37,198 bases of DNA from an uncultured virus (IMG/VR IMGVR_UViG_3300000956_000008) (IMGVR_UViG_3300000956_000008), one strand, 5' to 3'. Shown: positions 442 through 8,756, numbered from the stretch's first letter. Translations and numbers: made by a program. The notes: a model not told the origin generated them from the letters alone.

Positions 442-516
442 TGGTGCTGGATGTAGGGTTCGAACCTACCTAAAGCGGCTTAGAAGACCGCTGCACATCC
501 AATATACCAATCCAGC
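442..516 (-). tRNA. tRNA-Arg(TCT)
   Basis: GCGGT CT TCT AA GCCGC, GTTCGAAC, CCA. Confidence 0.92.
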
Positions 517-521
517 TTATT

Positions 522-596
522 TGGCGGGCCATCGAGGTTACGATCCCCGTCCACATGGCTTTGGAGGCCAGTATGCTGCCATCACAATCAAGACCC
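522..596 (-). tRNA. tRNA-Trp(CCA), atypical T loop
   Basis: TGGC CT CCA AA GCCA; T loop GATCGTAA; CCA end. Confidence 0.85.
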
Positions 597-606
597 TTAA
601 TTCGTG

Positions 607-682
607 GGAGACACTTATAACACGCTGTCTCCTGAGCGTCACATCACCAGTTGGTTTGGTGATCATACCAAGGCGCGGTATG
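607..682 (-). ncRNA. candidate structured element: two hairpins plus H-type pseudoknot
   Basis: CATACC/GGTATG, ATCACCA/TGGTGAT, ACGCT/AGCGT with loop GGAGAC complementary to downstream GTCTCC. Confidence 0.4.
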
Positions 683-687
683 TTCTT

Positions 688-1248
688 TTATTCGTCACCG
701 TATCCATCAAATGGGTTGCACGTACCAACGAACTGGGCAAAGCCCTTGTTTTTAAACTTCTCTGTGGTCATCTTCCAGCCGAGCCGCACACGCAAATCGC
801 GTGTAGCACTCCAAGGCTTGACACAGTAGTATTCGAATCCAATCAGCTTGTTGCCTTCATACAGCTTGGCAAACATGCCGCCGGGAATCTTAGACTTGTC
901 AGAGATATCAGGATTACCTGTGATGGTCATTGTAGCTGTATCAGACCACTTGATGGCAGAGCGCTTGGCAAGGCCGTACAGAGGGTTTCTGAGCATCCAC
1001 ATGACACGGTTCACGTATCCTTTGAAGCCTGTTGTAACACCGAGGAACAAACAACGTTTGGCTACGAATCCTTGATCACCCTGTGGAGGGTTATCGTATG
1101 TACCCCAAAGCCATCCCCAAGTATATTCAGTCTTACCGTATTCCTGTGCCCGCGTGAACAGAGGAACGATCAATGCTGCGGGAAGTGCAGTGAAGATTGT
1201 CATCAAGATATCAACAACGAGTAGCATTGTGAATCGTAGGTAAATCAT
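688..1248 (-). CDS. hypothetical membrane protein, 186 aa
   Basis: GGAGG RBS before MIYLRF; hydrophobic N terminus; the longer ORF-track start overlaps tRNA-Gln. Confidence 0.8.
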   Translation of the reverse strand: MIYLRFTMLLVVDILMTIFTALPAALIVPLFTRAQEYGKTEYTWGWLWGTYDNPPQGDQGFVAKRCLFLGVTTGFKGYVNRVMWMLRNPLYGLAKRSAIKWSDTATMTITGNPDISDKSKIPGGMFAKLYEGNKLIGFEYYCVKPWSATRDLRVRLGWKMTTEKFKNKGFAQFVGTCNPFDGYGDE

Positions 1249-1265
1249 TGTGCCTCCAGTTTGTT

Positions 1266-1342
1266 TGGAAGAGGGAGTGGGGGTCGAACCCACAATTGCT
1301 GGATTCAAAGTCCAGTGCGTCTACCAGTTCCGCCATCCCTCA
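1266..1342 (-). tRNA. tRNA-Gln(TTG)
   Basis: CTGGA CT TTG AA TCCAG, GTTCGAC, CCA. Confidence 0.92.
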
Positions 1343-1351
1343 ATTAAATTA

Positions 1352-1475
1352 GTACCGAGAGCATTCTAAGGATGGCCATCCGTCGTCAACTCTCTAGTCA
1401 CGTTTCATCCGCTTTGTGAACCACACCCTTTCAGGTGTCCGCCGAGGCTTGGGAGGGAATCGAACCCTAACGCGA
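1352..1475 (-). ncRNA. permuted tRNA-like (YrlA/Y-RNA-like topology) element plus 3' hairpin
   Basis: T arm AGGG TTCGATT CCCT precedes a D-arm-like TTCA CAAAGCGGA TGAA; closing stem TCGCGTT/AACGTGA; no anticodon arm or CCA end. Confidence 0.5.
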
Positions 1476-1490
1476 TTACTTTGTGATGTT

Positions 1491-1564
1491 TGGTGCTTCG
1501 TGAGAGAATTGAACTCCCGTCTGTTGCGTGTAAAGCAACGGCCCTACCATTAGACGAACGAAGC
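1491..1564 (-). tRNA. tRNA-Val(TAC)
   Basis: GTTGC TT TAC AC GCAAC, GTTCAAT, CCA. Confidence 0.92.
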
Positions 1565-1569
1565 TTGTT

Positions 1570-1646
1570 TGGTGGGCCTTCCCAGACTCGAACTGGGAAC
1601 ATCTTCATTTTGAGTGAAGCATGACTGCCAATTGCATCAAAGGCCC
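1570..1646 (-). tRNA. tRNA-Leu(CAA), short variable loop
   Basis: CTTCA CT CAA AA TGAAG, 5-nt variable region, CCA. Confidence 0.88.
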
Positions 1647-1655
1647 ATTTTTGTT

Positions 1656-1745
1656 TGGAGGCGAGTGAGGGATTCAAACCCTCGGACCCCTTTCGGAGTC
1701 GCTAGTTTTCTAAACTAGAGCAATCGTTCACTCTACCAACTCGCC
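1656..1745 (-). tRNA. tRNA-Ser(AGA)
   Basis: CTAGT TT AGA AA ACTAG, long variable arm GACTCCGAAAGGGGTC, CCA. Confidence 0.88.
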
Positions 1746-1752
1746 AAAATTT

Positions 1753-1867
1753 AGAGGTTCAACTTGGGACTCATACCCCTACCGGACTATCGCAACATTC
1801 CGAGTGCAACCCAGCCGCGAACCCTCACGCTGATGCAGTTTTCTTTTCAGGAGCGACCTGAACATCT
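1753..1867 (-). ncRNA. candidate ~115-nt multibranch structured RNA between two tRNA-Ser genes
   Basis: Ends pair (AGATGTTCA/TGAACCTCT); internal stems TGCATCAGC..GCTGG.TTGCA, TCGGA/TCCGG, GGG/CCC. Confidence 0.45.
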
Positions 1868-1956
1868 TGGCAGAGAGCTGAGGTCTTGATCCCCAACCGT
1901 GTTAACGATCCCTTTGTTTAGCAAACAAGGCCAGCCACCTGACTGGGTAACTCTCT
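1868..1956 (-). tRNA. tRNA-Ser(GCT), atypical T loop
   Basis: CTTGT TT GCT AA ACAAA, long variable arm, T loop GATCAAG, GCCA end. Confidence 0.85.
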
Positions 1957-2042
1957 ATGTTAGTGGCAGCAAGCGTAACTGCCTGACATACTGTATTTCA
2001 GAGAATACGCCGCCTAACGTAATCTAACAGTACATCATATTT

Positions 2043-2120
2043 TGGTTGGACGCCCCGGACTTGAACCGGGAACCTACCGGGTAAAAGCCGGTTATTCTAA
2101 GCCAATTGAATTAGCGTCCA
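2043..2120 (-). tRNA. tRNA-Lys(TTT)
   Basis: ACCGG CT TTT AC CCGGT, GTTCAAGT, CCA. Confidence 0.93.
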
Positions 2121-2124
2121 ATTA

Positions 2125-2442
2125 TTACTTAGCGAAGTTAAATACTGGGGCGAGAGGTTTGTCCTCTAGCTCGTCCGGTCCCTCACTTCCTTTTGCTAGT
2201 TGAATCTTCAATGCTTCGTTAGACTTGTATAGATTGTTGTACATATCAACCAACACCTGTTTCATCTTGAAACGGTCCTTAGCTGGAATGGACTCATCAT
2301 CGCTGATTTCAATCATCTTGTCAATAGCCTGTCCGTAAATTCTTTTAAGAATTCTCAAACCAGCATCTAGTTCTGTCTTTGTCACCCCACGTGCAGCCAT
2401 TTCAGCTTTTGTTGGACGACCGCCTTTATTCTTTTGTTCCAT
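2125..2442 (-). CDS. putative terminase small subunit, 105 aa
   Basis: N-terminal KGGRPTK motif, helical body, short C-terminal beta-like tail; heads the tRNA operon; GAGG RBS. Confidence 0.5.
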   Translation of the reverse strand: MEQKNKGGRPTKAEMAARGVTKTELDAGLRILKRIYGQAIDKMIEISDDESIPAKDRFKMKQVLVDMYNNLYKSNEALKIQLAKGSEGPDELEDKPLAPVFNFAK

Positions 2443-2463
2443 TATGCTATACCTCGGATTAGA

Positions 2464-2518
2464 GTGAGTGGTAGGCTTACAGCCCGAAAGGAGGAGGAAA
2501 CAGGCACGCTCCACTCAC
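2464..2518 (-). promoter_or_regulatory. leader hairpin exposing an anti-Shine-Dalgarno loop
   Basis: GTGAGTGG/CCACTCAC outer stem, GCCTG/CGGGC inner stem, loop TTTCCTCCTCCTTT. Confidence 0.5.
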
Positions 2519-2552
2519 ATAACTTGTAGGACATTTCTGTCTAAGTATGGTA

Positions 2553-2580
2553 AGTATACCATGATTGCACTGTCTGTCAA
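2553..2580 (-). promoter_or_regulatory. sigma70 promoter for the TerS-like/tRNA operon
   Basis: TTGACA-N16-TATACT. Confidence 0.7.
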
Positions 2581-2593
2581 CCCCTTGATAGGA

Positions 2594-2788
2594 TTAATTT
2601 TCTTTGATGGGTACTGGCCCTGTCACACCGTCAGTCGGATATCGTCCGCAGACATACTCTTTCTCTGTGTATGAATTGTATACAAGATTTCTGCACACAC
2701 TACAAAAGTCTTCTTCTCTCTGTGCGAGCTTATTCCATGCGGGGCTATCATTATTGATCAGCGGTACATCGCAGCATCGGCATCTCAT
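2594..2788 (-). CDS. small zinc-binding hypothetical protein, 64 aa
   Basis: CRCC...CSVC motif. Confidence 0.7.
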   Translation of the reverse strand: MRCRCCDVPLINNDSPAWNKLAQREEDFCSVCRNLVYNSYTEKEYVCGRYPTDGVTGPVPIKEN

Positions 2789-2894
2789 AGTTTGGTTTCC
2801 TTATATTATTTAGGGTTATTCCATACAATCTCCTTTAGTATCAGTGGTTTAGGTGGTTGTATGTGTTGGTTATTGTATTTGATCTGCTCATGAC

Positions 2895-3118
2895 GCTGAG
2901 TTTCGTATTGGAAGATAGAACTGTCCCAAGGAAAGCCATACAGGAAACCCTGCCTCGACCTACCTTGGTTCTATCTTCCACACTATCTCGTATGAGTTTC
3001 CTCATGACGCTTGAGATCGTGATTGGCCTGCATTGGCAGGAGACAGATTGCTCTGTCAGATTCTGGTCATTCCACCTTGCGGTGTCGTCGCTACGCTTTA
3101 ACCAGATTAGAACTCAGC
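2895..3118 (-). ncRNA. large multi-stem structured element with three GNRA tetraloops
   Basis: Closing stem GCTGAGTT/AACTCAGC; 13-bp stem TGGAAGATAGAAC/GTTCTATCTTCCA; CACC-GCAA-GGTG, GACAGA-GCAA-TCTGTC, ATGAG-GAAA-CTCAT. Confidence 0.6.
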
Positions 3119-3180
3119 TTGCCCAGTAGCATCCTCTTCATAGGCGTGTTCCCTGATGGCCGGTGAGTGAATTCAGACAT
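3091..3180 (-). CDS. possible 29-aa leader peptide (MSEFTHRPSGNTPMKRMLLGKLSSNLVKA)
   Basis: GGAGAG RBS just after a promoter; ORF runs into the 5' strand of the structured element. Confidence 0.35.
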   Translation of the reverse strand: MSEFTHRPSGNTPMKRMLLGKLSSNLVKA

Positions 3181-3200
3181 ATCTCTCCATCAGTTTTTCC

Positions 3201-3229
3201 ATACTAACACGGCAATTGCCCTACGTCAA
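3201..3229 (-). promoter_or_regulatory. sigma70 promoter, leftward of divergent pair
   Basis: TTGACG-N17-TAGTAT. Confidence 0.7.
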
Positions 3230-3233
3230 GGTC

Positions 3234-3261
3234 TTGACAATCAGGAAAACTGTGTTACTAT
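3234..3261 (+). promoter_or_regulatory. sigma70 promoter, rightward of divergent pair
   Basis: TTGACA-N16-TACTAT with TGTG upstream of the -10. Confidence 0.7.
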
Positions 3262-3292
3262 CAGAAATTATCAAATCAATAAGGAGAACCCT

Positions 3293-3721
3293 ATGACCGA
3301 TTTCATTGATGTAGTTGAACACAACCCTATCGTGTTCGTCAAGAGCGTCTGTGAGGCGATTGCAGAAGGCTACGCAATTCAGAACACAATCCCCGGCTAT
3401 CCTCAGTTTGGCGCCTATGGCAACGCTGTACGCATGTTCAAGGCTGAAAAGCCGGGTGGTGTGATCATTTCTGCTGACCACAGTGGACGTGTAGAACATT
3501 ATGAGCCAATGGCCTTCATGCTGCTGGTGCAAAACTTCGTACACGCTGGATACACATTCAAGGAAGGTGGTAATCACTTCTTTGATGAAAAGGGTTTGAA
3601 GAGTATTGAAATGGAGCTTGTCAAAGATGAGCCGAAAGAAGAAAAACCAGCGAAGAAAGCTCCTGCAAAGAAAGCTTTGAAAGCTGAACCAACTATTGAT
3701 GAATTGAAGGAGGCTGAATAA
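3293..3721 (+). CDS. hypothetical protein, 142 aa, Lys/Ala/Pro-rich tail
   Basis: AAGGAG RBS before MTDFIDVVEH. Confidence 0.85.
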   Translation: MTDFIDVVEHNPIVFVKSVCEAIAEGYAIQNTIPGYPQFGAYGNAVRMFKAEKPGGVIISADHSGRVEHYEPMAFMLLVQNFVHAGYTFKEGGNHFFDEKGLKSIEMELVKDEPKEEKPAKKAPAKKALKAEPTIDELKEAE

Positions 3722-3723
3722 TT

Positions 3724-4095
3724 ATGGCAAAACTAACTAAAGCACAACGTGAGTTCTTCTACGACTTCGCAAAGAATGACCTGAGCAATATCCTATTCCC
3801 TATCCTGCACGCACAGGGTTTGCAACTAACGCCAGAACTGGCTGAGAGCTTGCTGAACATGGTTGACCTTGATGCCTATACCGAAATCGTAGGTCAAGCG
3901 TTCCTTGAGCGTGTAGACTTCACCACCATTAAGCGTGTAGACAAGATCATGAAGAGCGATGAGTTCAACAACGTGATTGTTGCATCGCAGCAAGTGAGCG
4001 ACGCTGTAAACGATGAGCGTATCCGTATTCTCGCTGCACTGATTCCAGTTGCAGATGAAGAAGCTCTTGGTCTGACTGACGAACAAGAGGGCTAA
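3724..4095 (+). CDS. hypothetical protein, 123 aa
   Basis: AAGGAGG RBS, operon position. Confidence 0.85.
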   Translation: MAKLTKAQREFFYDFAKNDLSNILFPILHAQGLQLTPELAESLLNMVDLDAYTEIVGQAFLERVDFTTIKRVDKIMKSDEFNNVIVASQQVSDAVNDERIRILAALIPVADEEALGLTDEQEG

Positions 4096-4102
4096 TCTAT
4101 TC

Positions 4103-4124
4103 GGGAGCTTCGGCTCCCTCTTTC
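4103..4124 (+). terminator. hairpin or weak intrinsic terminator
   Basis: GGGAGC TTCG GCTCCC TCTTT. Confidence 0.6.
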
Positions 4125-4137
4125 ATGGAGGTGCATA

Positions 4138-4914
4138 ATGGCTAAGAGAAACCAAGCGAAAGTTATTGGAAAACGCTGGGAAGAAAAAGAACAACGTGGT
4201 CGGGAAGTTAATCCAAAGTTTGTAGAAGCAAGGGAAGATGGCCGCTCCAAAGCCAACACCACGCCGCTGAAGCCACGCAACGACAAACAAGCTGCGTACA
4301 TCCAGTCCATCAACGAAAACCCTCTCACCATCGCCACAGGCTACGCTGGCACATCTAAAACCTACATCCCAACTGTTATGGCATGTGATGCTTACCTGAA
4401 AGGTGAGATTGATAAGATTGTGTTCGTGCGTCCTAACATTTCCAACAGTAAGTCGCTGGGTATGTTCAAAGGCAGTGCGGTAGAGAAGATGGAAATGTGG
4501 CTGATGCCTGTAATCAACATCCTCAAGGATCGTCTGACACCGGGTGGACTTCAAACTGCTATCGAGAACGGGAACATCCAGTATGTACCTCTGGAAGTAT
4601 TGAAAGGTTTCAGTGCTGAGAGCTGCTTCTTTATTGTGGATGAAGGTGAAGACATTAACCAAGAAGAAGCCAAGAACATTGTTACCCGTCAAGGTAAGAA
4701 TTGCAAAATGGTGATTAGTGGCGACGTAAGTCAGAGTGCTTTGAAGAGCCATTCTGGTTTGAAGATGCTGACTCGTATGGCATCTAAGCACACTCATTTG
4801 CCAATCGGTTTTATTGACTTCAACCATGTAAACGACATTGAGCGTAGCCAAGCCTGTAAGGATTGGATCATCGCTTTCGAGAAAGACGAACGGGAGGGCG
4901 TAAAGTATGAGTGA
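4138..4914 (+). CDS. phoH: PhoH-family ATPase
   Basis: GYAGTSKT Walker A, FIVDEGED Walker B, SGDVSQS, IERS. Confidence 0.92.
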   Translation: MAKRNQAKVIGKRWEEKEQRGREVNPKFVEAREDGRSKANTTPLKPRNDKQAAYIQSINENPLTIATGYAGTSKTYIPTVMACDAYLKGEIDKIVFVRPNISNSKSLGMFKGSAVEKMEMWLMPVINILKDRLTPGGLQTAIENGNIQYVPLEVLKGFSAESCFFIVDEGEDINQEEAKNIVTRQGKNCKMVISGDVSQSALKSHSGLKMLTRMASKHTHLPIGFIDFNHVNDIERSQACKDWIIAFEKDEREGVKYE

Positions 4915-5515
4915 AGATATGAACAAACCAAATCGTATTATGATGACACAACACGTTGCGAATGAATACCATCTGAGACTGGCACGTCCTATCACAGAAG
5001 TGGATGACTTTGAAGACGAGTTTCAGTTGTTTGCTGCTGCTGGCGAGCGTGATTTGATCCACATTGATATCGTAACGCCGGGTGGCTCTATGGATACAGC
5101 TCACATGCTGTGTCGTGCCATTCAACGTACACAAGCTCACGTAGTGGCGTATATTGGCCCTACCTGTGCATCTGCTGGTACAGCGATTGCTCTGGCCTGT
5201 GAAGAGTGGGAGATTGATGACATGTCCTCTTTCATGATCCACACTGGCAGCTACGGCTACGTTGGGATGGCTCCACACGTTGAAGCTAACGTTCGCCACA
5301 ACACGAAGATGATTGAACGCTACGTTCGTCTCACCTACGCAGGATTCTTGACTGAGGAAGAGATTGAGCGTGTTATCGACGGTCGTGAAATGTACTTCGA
5401 AGGTGAAGAGCTTGCTCAGCGCCTGTCTGCGTACAGTGTGTACCGTGAAGCGATTCGTGAAGCCAATCGTCACGATGAGCAAGAAGTGGTTGACGAAGAC
5501 CCGTTTAGCGATTAA
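4907..5515 (+). CDS. clpP: ClpP-like protease subunit
   Basis: TPGGS, CASAGTAIALA (catalytic Ser), FMIH. Confidence 0.85.
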   Translation: MSEDMNKPNRIMMTQHVANEYHLRLARPITEVDDFEDEFQLFAAAGERDLIHIDIVTPGGSMDTAHMLCRAIQRTQAHVVAYIGPTCASAGTAIALACEEWEIDDMSSFMIHTGSYGYVGMAPHVEANVRHNTKMIERYVRLTYAGFLTEEEIERVIDGREMYFEGEELAQRLSAYSVYREAIREANRHDEQEVVDEDPFSD

Positions 5516-7600: not shown

Positions 7601-8756
7601 GACACTCTATGGCCTTGACAAGAAAGGCGACATGAAGGTTTGGGATATTGAAGTTAAAGATGGCCTAAATGGTGATGCTTACCTTGTGATTAGACACGGT
7701 AAACTAGGTGGTAAGCAGACTGAGAAATCTGAATACTTTGGCTACGGCTCTGGCAAGCAAGGCCGCAACGCTTTTGAGCAAGCAGCCCTTGAAGCTCAAG
7801 CTCGCATCAAGAAGCAGGAAGATAAGAACTACCGTGAGAACACGGCTGATCTTGCCAACCTTGACATTCTGGCTATGCTCGCTGCTGACTACCGTAAGCG
7901 TGGCAAGAGCATCGTATATCCGTGCTACGGCTCTGATAAATATGATGGTGTTCGTGCTCTGGCGAAGAAACGCAATGGCGTTGTAACCATCGAATCTCGT
8001 ACCTCACAGCTTTACGATATCCCGCATATCCATGAAGCTCTTGTGATCCATATGCAAGACGGTGACATTTGGGATGGTGAAATCTACCTGCATGGTGAAG
8101 TGCTGCAAGATATTACATCTGCTGTAGGTCGTACTGACACTCAGGCGAAGATTGATGCTGCTCAGCGTAAATACGAGAAGGTTGTGTGCGACGATAACTA
8201 CGAGGCTCTGCAAGAAGCTATACACATCCATGAGATTCGCCCTAAGCTGGAGTTCCATATCTTTGACGTGCATTCGGATAAGACATTCGATGAACGTGTA
8301 AAAGACCTTGACGAGTTGTGTGGTATTCCTATAGTATCGCCCTGCATTCAGGTTACTCAGTATGTTTGGGTTGCTGATGCGGTAGATATGAAAGTCAAGC
8401 ATGATGATGCTGTAGATCGTGGCTACGAAGGCTTGATGCTCCGCAACTTCAAGGGTTTGTATGAGAGCGGGAAACGCTCGACAGACTTGCAGAAGTACAA
8501 AGAGTTTGTTGACGCTGAGTTTGAGATTCTTGATGTAATCCCAGACAAAGAAGACGGAAGTCGATTCGTTGTTCGAAACAACTTGAACGACCGAACGTTC
8601 ACTGTTACACTGGGCTCTATGGCTCAACGAGCTGAGTATCTGGCAAACAAACATCTTTACATCGGTAAGATGATTACTGTAAGATACCAGTCTCGATACA
8701 AAAAGACAAAACTTCCCCAGTTCCCAACTGGTGTGGTTATCCGTGATTACGAATAA
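7593..8756 (+). CDS. ATP-dependent DNA ligase
   Basis: KYDGVR motif I, DGEIY, FHIFD, EGLMLR, KYK, QFP; TTG start after GGAGG. Confidence 0.93.
   Translation: MIKTLYGLDKKGDMKVWDIEVKDGLNGDAYLVIRHGKLGGKQTEKSEYFGYGSGKQGRNAFEQAALEAQARIKKQEDKNYRENTADLANLDILAMLAADYRKRGKSIVYPCYGSDKYDGVRALAKKRNGVVTIESRTSQLYDIPHIHEALVIHMQDGDIWDGEIYLHGEVLQDITSAVGRTDTQAKIDAAQRKYEKVVCDDNYEALQEAIHIHEIRPKLEFHIFDVHSDKTFDERVKDLDELCGIPIVSPCIQVTQYVWVADAVDMKVKHDDAVDRGYEGLMLRNFKGLYESGKRSTDLQKYKEFVDAEFEILDVIPDKEDGSRFVVRNNLNDRTFTVTLGSMAQRAEYLANKHLYIGKMITVRYQSRYKKTKLPQFPTGVVIRDYE

Follow-up and report, generated by a model that had tools for sequence, protein, structure and literature searches.

The put RNAs of phage HK022 are cis-acting elements of about 70 nt, made of two stem-loops, that bring about processive antitermination. 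Phage T4 carries two R-loop origin sites per genome (oriF and oriG), and identical direct repeats around a template mark template switching, as in retroviral R, hepadnaviral DR1/DR2, and the DRT2 noncoding RNA (ncRNA). Here, we examined a locus that recalls each of these systems in part. It lies on a 37,198-nt stretch of DNA from an uncultured virus (IMG/VR IMGVR_UViG_3300000956_000008), called the window below, in which an original prediction had pointed to a large structured element with its own promoter. The window belongs to a myophage of Pseudomonas that is related closely to the Otagovirus group, and phiPsa374 and VCM showed about 82% identity to it over 701 nt. The element is an undescribed, uncatalogued folded RNA of Pseudomonas phages, and it contains an odd direct repeat, the two copies of which vary in concert among phages.

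The minus strand of this region folds far better than expected by chance. The minimum free energy of the 321-nt minus-strand RNA (3200-2880) was -112.2 kcal/mol, compared to a mean of -90.0 for shuffled sequences (standard deviation, 5.1; z = -4.4), and none of 100 dinucleotide shuffles folded as well. For the plus strand of the same region, z was -2.1 and 3 of 100 shuffles were equally good. Invariant or common G:U pairs were also found, namely, the closing pair of helix P7c (51/51 sequences) and U:G pairs in P2 (48/69) and P3 (49/69). The minus strand is thus the folded strand, since these pairs would be C.A mismatches on the other one. Together with the covariation described below, these results bear out the predicted minus-strand RNA, and its conserved, strand-specific structure is real.

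Covariation was assessed separately in the two halves. For the 5′ domain, a covariance model of the first 144 nt (R1, comprising P1, P1a, P2, P3a, P3, and P4) gave 72 matches (69 distinct rows). In this alignment, which was fitted to the model and is thus biased towards structure, 92.2% of cells were paired compared to 66.1% in shuffles, both sides had changed in 462 cells compared to 128, and 34 to 45% of cells were paired when partners were slid. For the 3′ half, 51 sequences were aligned with MAFFT alone, without fitting them to the structure. There, 88.7% of cells were paired (75.2% in shuffles; 28 to 47% in slid controls), and both-side changes occurred at 23 of 28 pairs. All ten helices listed in the original prediction were found on the minus strand of the window; seven of them covary and two belong to a lineage-specific insertion restricted to the window and one IMG/VR contig (2/38 sequences; 1/22 in the alignment of GenBank phages). 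The tenth, which was supposed to close the others into a single domain, is perfect in the window itself (GCTGAGTT/AACTCAGC in DNA form) but is not conserved. Its second pair is C:G in 14, C:U in 16, and C:C in 2 of 32 sequences, and its seventh pair forms in 15 of 32. Moreover, changes in its 3′ arm from CUCA to CUGA or CCCA are mirrored in the first copy of the repeat and not in the 5′ arm, and the helix is broken where both repeat copies read CUGA.

Several details of the fold are shared among family members. The 5′ hairpin domain contains the invariant stretches GGAGAGAUAUGUC (3188-3176) and CACUCACCGG (3169-3160), while its P1.1 hairpin, often with a GAAA cap, shows length differences of 1 to 10 nt. 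The loop of P2 carries the near-invariant UAUGAAGAGG, and a U-turn-like UUCUAAU stands just before P3. In P5, the third pair is CG in 9, GC in 13, UA in 7, AU in 1, and GU in 1 of 32 sequences. Invariant stretches are likewise found unpaired at junctions (GGAGAGAUAUGUC, CACUCACCGG, UAUGAAGAGG, CUGA, and GGAAUGA). The 11-nt GNRA tetraloop receptor is a CCUAAG...UAUGG internal loop closed by a G:U pair. The internal loop of P7, in which the UAUGG strand (2940-2936) is near-invariant, recalls this receptor in UAUGG and in the closing G:U, and differs from it in the 5′ strand, which reads C(U)UAGG or CGAGG rather than CCUAAG.

The predicted limits of the domain, 2895-3180 (about 225 nt), proved too narrow. 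Invariant blocks lie upstream of the earlier-reported start in an alignment of 22 phages with their flanks (GGAGAGAUAUGUC, CACUCACCGG, UAUGAAGAGG, and CAAGCUGA), and the first helix, P1, starts about 8 nt past the -10 hexamer; the folded RNA therefore spans about 3197-2881 on the minus strand, i.e., about 315 nt. The minus-strand promoter that the original prediction had assigned to the element (TTGACG-N17-TAGTAT) is indeed present. It matches 9 of 12 consensus positions, with a TG preceding the -10 hexamer, and the TTGAC of its -35 element is invariant in 22/22 aligned phages. The transcription start inferred from this promoter would fall near 3195. A second sigma-70 promoter (3234-3261, plus) stands back to back with it (3201-3229, minus), 4 nt apart, and such a promoter pair recurs at a second homologous locus of phiPsa374 (L048, about 1520-1550).

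The original prediction had also noted a sequence occurring twice. This was confirmed: the window has two and only two exact copies of the 11-mer AGCGTCATGAG, one at 3011-3001 and the other at 2897-2887, each on the minus strand. The 11-mer forms the perfectly matching core of a longer direct repeat (up to about 26 nt) whose copies flank the long P7 hairpin. Every clade has a repeat pair at the same two places, with a sequence that differs by clade. As detailed below, most carriers have two paralogs of the RNA. The repeats read AUCUACGAGA, ACUUACGAGAA, AUCCCCAUGAGA, AUCCGCAGAA, AUCCAGCAG, or AUCUGCAUG in first paralogs and AUUCUGGAUAG, GUUUUGGAUAG, AUUCUAGAUAG, AGCAGCACA, AACAGCA, AUUUACAC, or AACGUAAU in second paralogs, and those of distant members include GCGGACAUG, CCAUCCGGCAUUA, GAAGGCAAAU, CAAGUUAUC, and AAGGUGAU. 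Even single-base variants are shared by both copies, such as AGUGUCAUGAG in M5.1 and AGCUUCAUGAG in Pyxpy01. An exact direct repeat of at least 8 nt at a spacing of 60 to 120 nt was found in 60 of 73 distinct sequences compared to 118 of 1,460 shuffles. Over 42 distinct pairs of 16-nt windows, identity was 86% within an RNA, a value inflated by anchoring the windows on the detected repeat, and 56% between RNAs; the partner copy from the same RNA was the best match in 39 of 42. The spacing between the copies ranges from 75 to 115 nt and is not a multiple of three.

Within a single phage, the repeats of the two paralogs differ and assort independently. Those of Otagovirus are unrelated; in Pakpunavirus, the repeats of paralog A (Moonstruck, L045; AUCUGCAUG) and paralog B (L120; AUCUGCAUA) are nearly the same. 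In some second paralogs (L078, L121, and L128 to L131), the repeat ends in GGAUAG or AGAUAG, like the 5′ strand of their own P7 (GAGAUAGAC), an ending not seen in other clades. A complement scan for a cis partner of the repeat found none. Within a region reaching from 60 nt upstream to 450 nt downstream, the strongest duplex open to the repeat was weaker than those of shuffled repeats in 25 of 31 sequences and inconsistent in position; the tracts therefore look selected to stay single-stranded. Elsewhere in the genome, exact matches on the complementary strand were absent in 13/13 phage records and one-mismatch matches were near the control level. From these comparisons, the internal repeat appears to be both concerted and unpaired. 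Two ideas about its copies were discarded. Mini-hairpins of the form CUCA-loop-UGAG, one per copy, are compatible with the window and several other phages and fail in second paralogs, and mimicry of anticodon loops, examined by eye only, did not hold up.

Homologs of the RNA are widespread among Pseudomonas phages. A blastn search with the element core retrieved relatives in 54 GenBank phage records (68 to 85% identity), and a search with the Moonstruck element retrieved 178, of which 123 cover at least 80% of the element. Across 24 whole phage genomes, R1 gave exactly two matches in 21, belonging to Otagovirus, Flaumdravirus, and Pakpunavirus; carriers among the latter include PAK_P1, PAK_P4, Moonstruck, JG004, and PaP1. 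The paralog by the tRNA cluster scores 124 to 155 bits, and the other, about 35 kb away and not near tRNA genes, scores 61 to 110 bits. R1 matches were absent in the remaining 3 of 24, i.e., PAK_P3 and Ab03 (both Nankokuvirus) and Boevelstad, whose syntenic loci yielded nothing above 7.2 bits with the R1 filters off. Further IMG/VR members were collected by a relaxed pattern and verified with R1. On metagenome contigs, 49 of 73 pattern loci gave strong R1 matches. On contigs of metagenome-assembled genomes, R1 exposed 15 of 18 bacterial or archaeal pattern loci as chance matches, and the 3 real ones (68 to 77 bits) are binned as Marinobacter, Gammaproteobacteria, and Armatimonadetes.

This RNA matches none of the families in Rfam 15. 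At gathering thresholds, Rfam 15 gave seven matches over the whole window, all tRNA, and a permissive scan of 2400-3500 (E up to 10) gave five chance-level matches, all far below threshold, the best being SCARNA18 (19.6 bits versus a threshold of 40). In agreement with the original prediction, which could not assign the element to tmRNA, RNase P, 6S, or introns, none of these matched in the permissive scan. This holds for Intron_gpI at E up to 10, and a group I intron would have no 5′ exon because the RNA starts at its promoter. The GenBank records that we viewed, including that of PAK_P4, carry no ncRNA annotation at the element. No prior description was found in the open-access literature on PAK_P3, Otagovirus, and Pakpunavirus RNAs, a search that did not cover the candidate-ncRNA tables of the ONT-cappable-seq work on PAK_P3, a phage that lacks the element. 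Published PAK_P3 ncRNAs were considered and rejected as homologs. The RNAs sRNA1 and sRNA2 (PMC4933390) lie at different loci, and R1 without filters gave at most 7.2 bits at the PAK_P3 locus. The 5′ untranslated region ncRNA upstream of gp49 (bioRxiv 10.1101/2023.10.13.562163) likewise occupies a different locus and is not homologous.

The 5′ end of the RNA had also been predicted to overlap a leader open reading frame (ORF) of 29 codons. This ORF exists in the window (3180-3091, minus), but a conserved coding frame does not: across 38 sequences, the ORF that starts at the conserved AUG runs for 10 to 62 codons in three frames, with 29 codons in only 5, and the conserved CACUCACCGG is read in three different frames among aligned members. 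The frame shifts because P1.1 hairpins of different lengths follow the AUG. The start itself is invariant at the RNA 5′ end, as GGAGAG, a 4-nt spacer, and AUG (3188-3176, minus) occur in 38/38 members, and the GAG of GGAGAG doubles as a strand of P1a. This motif could belong to the structural core, or it could serve as a start site, from which translation would open up the 5′ domain. Two further ORFs in the window, 2841-3005 (minus) and 2857-3129 (plus), match no Pfam or PHROG family. In GenBank relatives, the region is either blank or occupied by a short "hypothetical protein" coding sequence (CDS) whose strand and frame differ between records. A conserved frame and a family match were both sought for the region and neither was found; these "hypothetical proteins" are probably wrong.

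The features of the RNA and of the operon behind it are listed in Table 1. The original prediction had placed the element upstream of a packaging/tRNA operon. Eight tRNA genes were indeed found there, whereas no packaging gene was identified. The first gene starts about 100 nt beyond the element, and the window scan found no terminator-like site between element and operon.

Table 1. Coordinates of the RNA features and of the downstream operon in the window
Feature	Position	Strand	Sequence or remark
Sigma-70-type promoter	3229-3201	minus	TTGACG-N17-TAGTAT; TTGACG 3229-3224, TAGTAT 3206-3201
5′ hairpin domain	3153..3193	minus	P1 + P1a + P1.1
P1	3193-3187 / 3159-3153	minus	CUGAUGG / CCAUCAG; both-side change at 7/7 pairs, 97.5% paired
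P1a	3185-3183 / 3167-3165	minus	GAG / CUC; invariant, 69/69 distinct rows
P2	3145-3142 / 3124-3121	minus	GCCU / GGGC; both-side change at 4/4 pairs, 96.7% paired
Putative closing helix	3118-3111 / 2902-2895	minus	GCUGAGUU / AACUCAGC; 8 bp in window; CUGA core invariant
P3a, P3, P4 region	3056..3111	minus	Conserved internal-loop strands AAGCGUAGCGACGA + GAA
P3	3106-3099 / 3069-3062	minus	UCUGGUUA / UGACCAGA; both-side change at 6/8 pairs, 90.0% paired
P4	3084-3073	minus	CACC-GCAA-GGUG; both-side change at 3/4 pairs, 87.2% paired
P5	3057-3042	minus	GACAGA-GCAA-UCUGUC; covaries in main clade (32 sequences)
P6	3040-3027	minus	CCUGC-CAAU-GCAGG; both-side change at 5/5 pairs, 91.8% paired
Repeat copy 1	3026-3001	minus	CCAAUCACGAUCUCAAGCGUCAUGAG; directly 3′ of P6
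Lineage-specific insertion	2985..3017	minus	AUCUC/GAGAU + AUGAG-GAAA-CUCAU; overlaps end of repeat copy 1
P7 long hairpin	2909..2980	minus	P7a + P7b + P7c; internal-loop strands UCGAGG / UAUGG
P7a		minus	13 bp, UGGAAGAUAGAAC / GUUCUAUCUUCCA; both-side change at 10/13 pairs (MAFFT)
P7b		minus	CCAAGG / CCUUGG; both-side change at 5/5 pairs (MAFFT)
P7c		minus	GCAGG / CCUGU; both-side change at 3/5 pairs; closing G:U in 51/51
Repeat copy 2	2911-2887	minus	CCAAUACGAAACUCAGCGUCAUGAG (CCAAU-ACGAAACUCA-GCGUCAUGAG); directly 3′ of P7
A-rich, G-poor linker	2789..2886	minus	First 70 nt: A 47%, C 23%, U 19%, G 11%
Zn-ribbon gene	2594..2788	minus	64 aa (amino acids), phrog_10364; first gene of operon
phrog_3900 gene	2514-2125	minus	After Zn-ribbon gene
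Eight tRNA genes	2120-60	minus	ARAGORN (Rfam finds seven)

Within the linker, a conserved mini-ORF of two codons, AUG-GAA-UAA (2824-2816, minus), follows a strong Shine-Dalgarno sequence (AAGGAG, 2835-2830) after a 5-nt gap, and related phages share this arrangement as AAGGAGAUUGUAUG-NNN-UAA. A near-consensus promoter (TTGACA-16-TATACT, 2553-2580, minus; 11/12 positions, TG present) lies between the Zn-ribbon and phrog_3900 genes, so the tRNA operon may have a second entry point. On the other strand, a divergent operon carries genes for a PhoH-like ATPase and a ClpP-like protease (4138-5515, plus), with phrog_5019 and DUF7375 genes ahead of them. The second paralog of phiPsa374 occupies a 410-nt divergent intergenic region, 3′ of a TTGACA promoter, and precedes DUF4326 and DFP-like genes. 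Repeat copy 2 abuts a Shine-Dalgarno sequence and AUG in many second paralogs. The first ORFs 3′ of 16 distant members encode ResIII/DEAD (3), HNH (2), DUF4326 (1), MUG113 (1), and PAPS_reduct (1) proteins or belong to no family (8). HNH homing-endonuclease genes stand directly 3′ of the element in phage 16Q (L011), L101, and L217, which suggests that mobile nucleases preferentially land at the site that follows the RNA. The PAK_P4 counterpart of the element is unannotated and lies between "promoter_11" and gp171. According to a supplementary table (PMC5563952), gp171 received 475 to 4,738 reads at 3.5 min and 7,809 to 8,538 at 13 min. The operon is therefore transcribed; these reads do not map the leader itself.

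We tentatively favor a reading, possible though short of probable, in which the RNA is a cis-acting operon leader that acts on its own transcription complex or transcript. Host RNA polymerase would transcribe the noncoding leader from the conserved sigma-70 promoter, and the leader would fold from its first bases, with P1 to P2 followed by P3 to P6 and then by the long P7 hairpin. The two paralogs would head two operons, in the window that of the Zn-ribbon and tRNA genes. The RNA would act in cis on its polymerase or transcript and thereby secure the expression of a long, partly untranslated operon, presumably by processive antitermination or anti-Rho action of the put or boxA kind; cis control of the adjoining ribosome-binding site may be an alternative for the second paralog. 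The identical single-stranded tracts 3′ of P6 and P7 would be effector or recognition sites. A promoter-proximal RNA, two paralogs at operon heads, the lack of an intervening terminator-like site, and eight untranslated tRNA genes behind an A-rich, G-poor linker all support a cis-acting leader, as do the unpaired repeat tracts, the Shine-Dalgarno sequence next to copy 2 in many second paralogs, and the transcription of gp171 in PAK_P4. The diversity of downstream genes is easier to square with a general device at operon heads than with a sensor of one pathway. Several points weigh against it. That the variable part of the repeat is identical in both copies is left unexplained by antitermination. 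The RNA is about four times the size of put and resembles neither put nor any Rfam family. A lone, weak terminator-like hairpin was found in the operon (1946-1931), and PAK_P3, Ab03, and Boevelstad keep a similar gene order without the RNA.

Since copy 1 equals copy 2, the upstream RNA tract complements the template strand where that strand encodes the downstream tract. The RNA could be self-referential: at the position of the downstream tract, its upstream tract would pair with the template DNA or with a newly made complementary strand, and the P7 hairpin would set the upstream tract beside the polymerase while the downstream tract is transcribed. We hold this to be rather doubtful. Nevertheless, the rule of copy identity is most simply met by the phage's own template DNA or a fresh copy of it, which keeps two related readings alive. 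One is an unlikely pre-primer or R-loop RNA at a replication origin, whose transcript would remain on its template DNA, or go back to it, and prime or open DNA. The RNA comes in two copies per genome, both located at divergent promoter regions, AT-rich DNA follows the element, and the phage's own DNA is the sole guaranteed complement of any repeat, no other exact complement having been found in the 13 records. In phiPsa374, cumulative GC skew has a local minimum at 23 to 24 kb, near paralog A (24.3 kb), and rises steadily from about 60 kb, near paralog B (59.9 kb). However, the first turn is confounded by a switch of gene strand at the same place, and the global minimum lies at 55 kb and not at paralog B. 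G-poor RNA is also unfavorable for stable RNA-DNA hybrids, and RNA 3′ of the element has 11% G in the window; besides, nascent copy 2 could re-anneal alone, so that a second copy is not obviously needed. The other related reading, a quite unlikely one, makes the RNA a trans-acting product, cut out as a stable ncRNA or ribozyme, or used as a template for a polymerase jump, excision, or circularization. The tRNA operon that it heads needs processing in any case, in size and ornate fold it is like the large phage-associated RNAs of unknown function, and its identical direct repeats flank a structured segment, as in template switching. Yet the second paralog lies away from tRNA genes, the copy spacing is not a multiple of three, and a reverse transcriptase gene, as expected for a retron or DRT, was absent in 3/3 genomes in a search limited to RVT_1 (PF00078), which matched 3 of 14 controls. 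Nor did joined or skipped repeat forms occur in contigs of four runs that cover the Pakpunavirus homolog whole, although this is weak evidence since these are contigs, probably of DNA.

The repeat could instead belong to a riboswitch-like or protein-binding sensor, a reading as improbable as the trans-acting product, in which the 5′ junctions would bind a ligand or factor and repeat, hairpin, and repeat would form the expression platform for translation or termination. Invariant unpaired junctions, the leader position, and the placement of copy 2 beside a Shine-Dalgarno sequence in many second paralogs agree with such a sensor, and the GNRA loops and the UAUGG loop recalling the 11-nt receptor suggest a compact tertiary fold. 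Neither coherently regulated genes nor alternative helices, as expected of a riboswitch, were found: the genes downstream share no common theme (16 ORFs, 8 without a family), no repeat-complementary segment was detected in cis, and the first gene of the window is about 100 nt further on. Protein-coding genes as annotated, or structure arising by chance, are extremely improbable. Several GenBank records do place a short "hypothetical protein" CDS on the region, but with the inconsistencies of strand, frame, and length described above; the window ORFs match no family, indels are not multiples of three, and compensatory variation is strong in both domains.

An RNA of about 300 nt with such covariation, invariant junctions, and candidate tertiary motifs almost always has a specific biochemical job, and few such RNAs are left undescribed in cultured, sequenced phages. 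The phage groups that carry it include some phages studied for therapy and biocontrol. Of the two operons behind it, one opens with a tRNA array and the other with DUF4326 and DFP-like genes. The concerted repeat makes a sharp prediction: a change in one copy should break function, and the identical change in both should restore it. If true, the self-referential reading would amount to a new means by which a transcript switches its own elongation complex, seeds an R-loop or origin, or causes a polymerase to jump; most PAK_P1-like therapeutic phages would then contain a new class of phage control RNA.

Compared to described systems, the RNA resembles GOLLD and ROOL in being large, intricately folded, and phage borne, with one paralog adjoining tRNA genes. 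Those RNAs are in Rfam, without a match here, exceed it 2 to 3 times in length, and are not known to head operons in pairs. With retroviral R, hepadnaviral DR1/DR2, and DRT2 ncRNA it shares identical, otherwise arbitrary direct repeats that flank a structured segment, but these template-switching systems differ in that no reverse transcriptase (PF00078) was found in the three genomes. Like RNA II of ColE1/pMB1 and the T4 origins oriF and oriG, it is a specifically folded RNA made from a promoter, and its function could rest on base pairing to its own template; a difference is that the RNA beyond it is G-poor. The boxA/boxB leaders of rrn operons and lambda nut, which load NusB-NusE, also present a hairpin and then a single-stranded tract, twice, ahead of untranslated genes, and the conserved beginning of the tract, CGAUCUCAA (some second paralogs have CGCUCUCAA instead), recalls boxA, CGCUCUUA. 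Here, however, the remaining 8 to 11 nt of each tract vary freely between phages and the scaffold is far larger. The put RNAs differ in size and architecture, with no similarity in sequence or structure to an RNA of at least 10 helices and no concerted internal repeat; no Rfam match links the two, the presence of a put model in Rfam being unchecked. Nonetheless, HK022 putL and putR offer a similar arrangement, an RNA-only element of a phage that uses the host polymerase, present as two diverged copies per genome, each just 3′ of an operon promoter; here, two copies were found in 21 of the 24 genomes, and promoter proximity was seen in the window and in phiPsa374.

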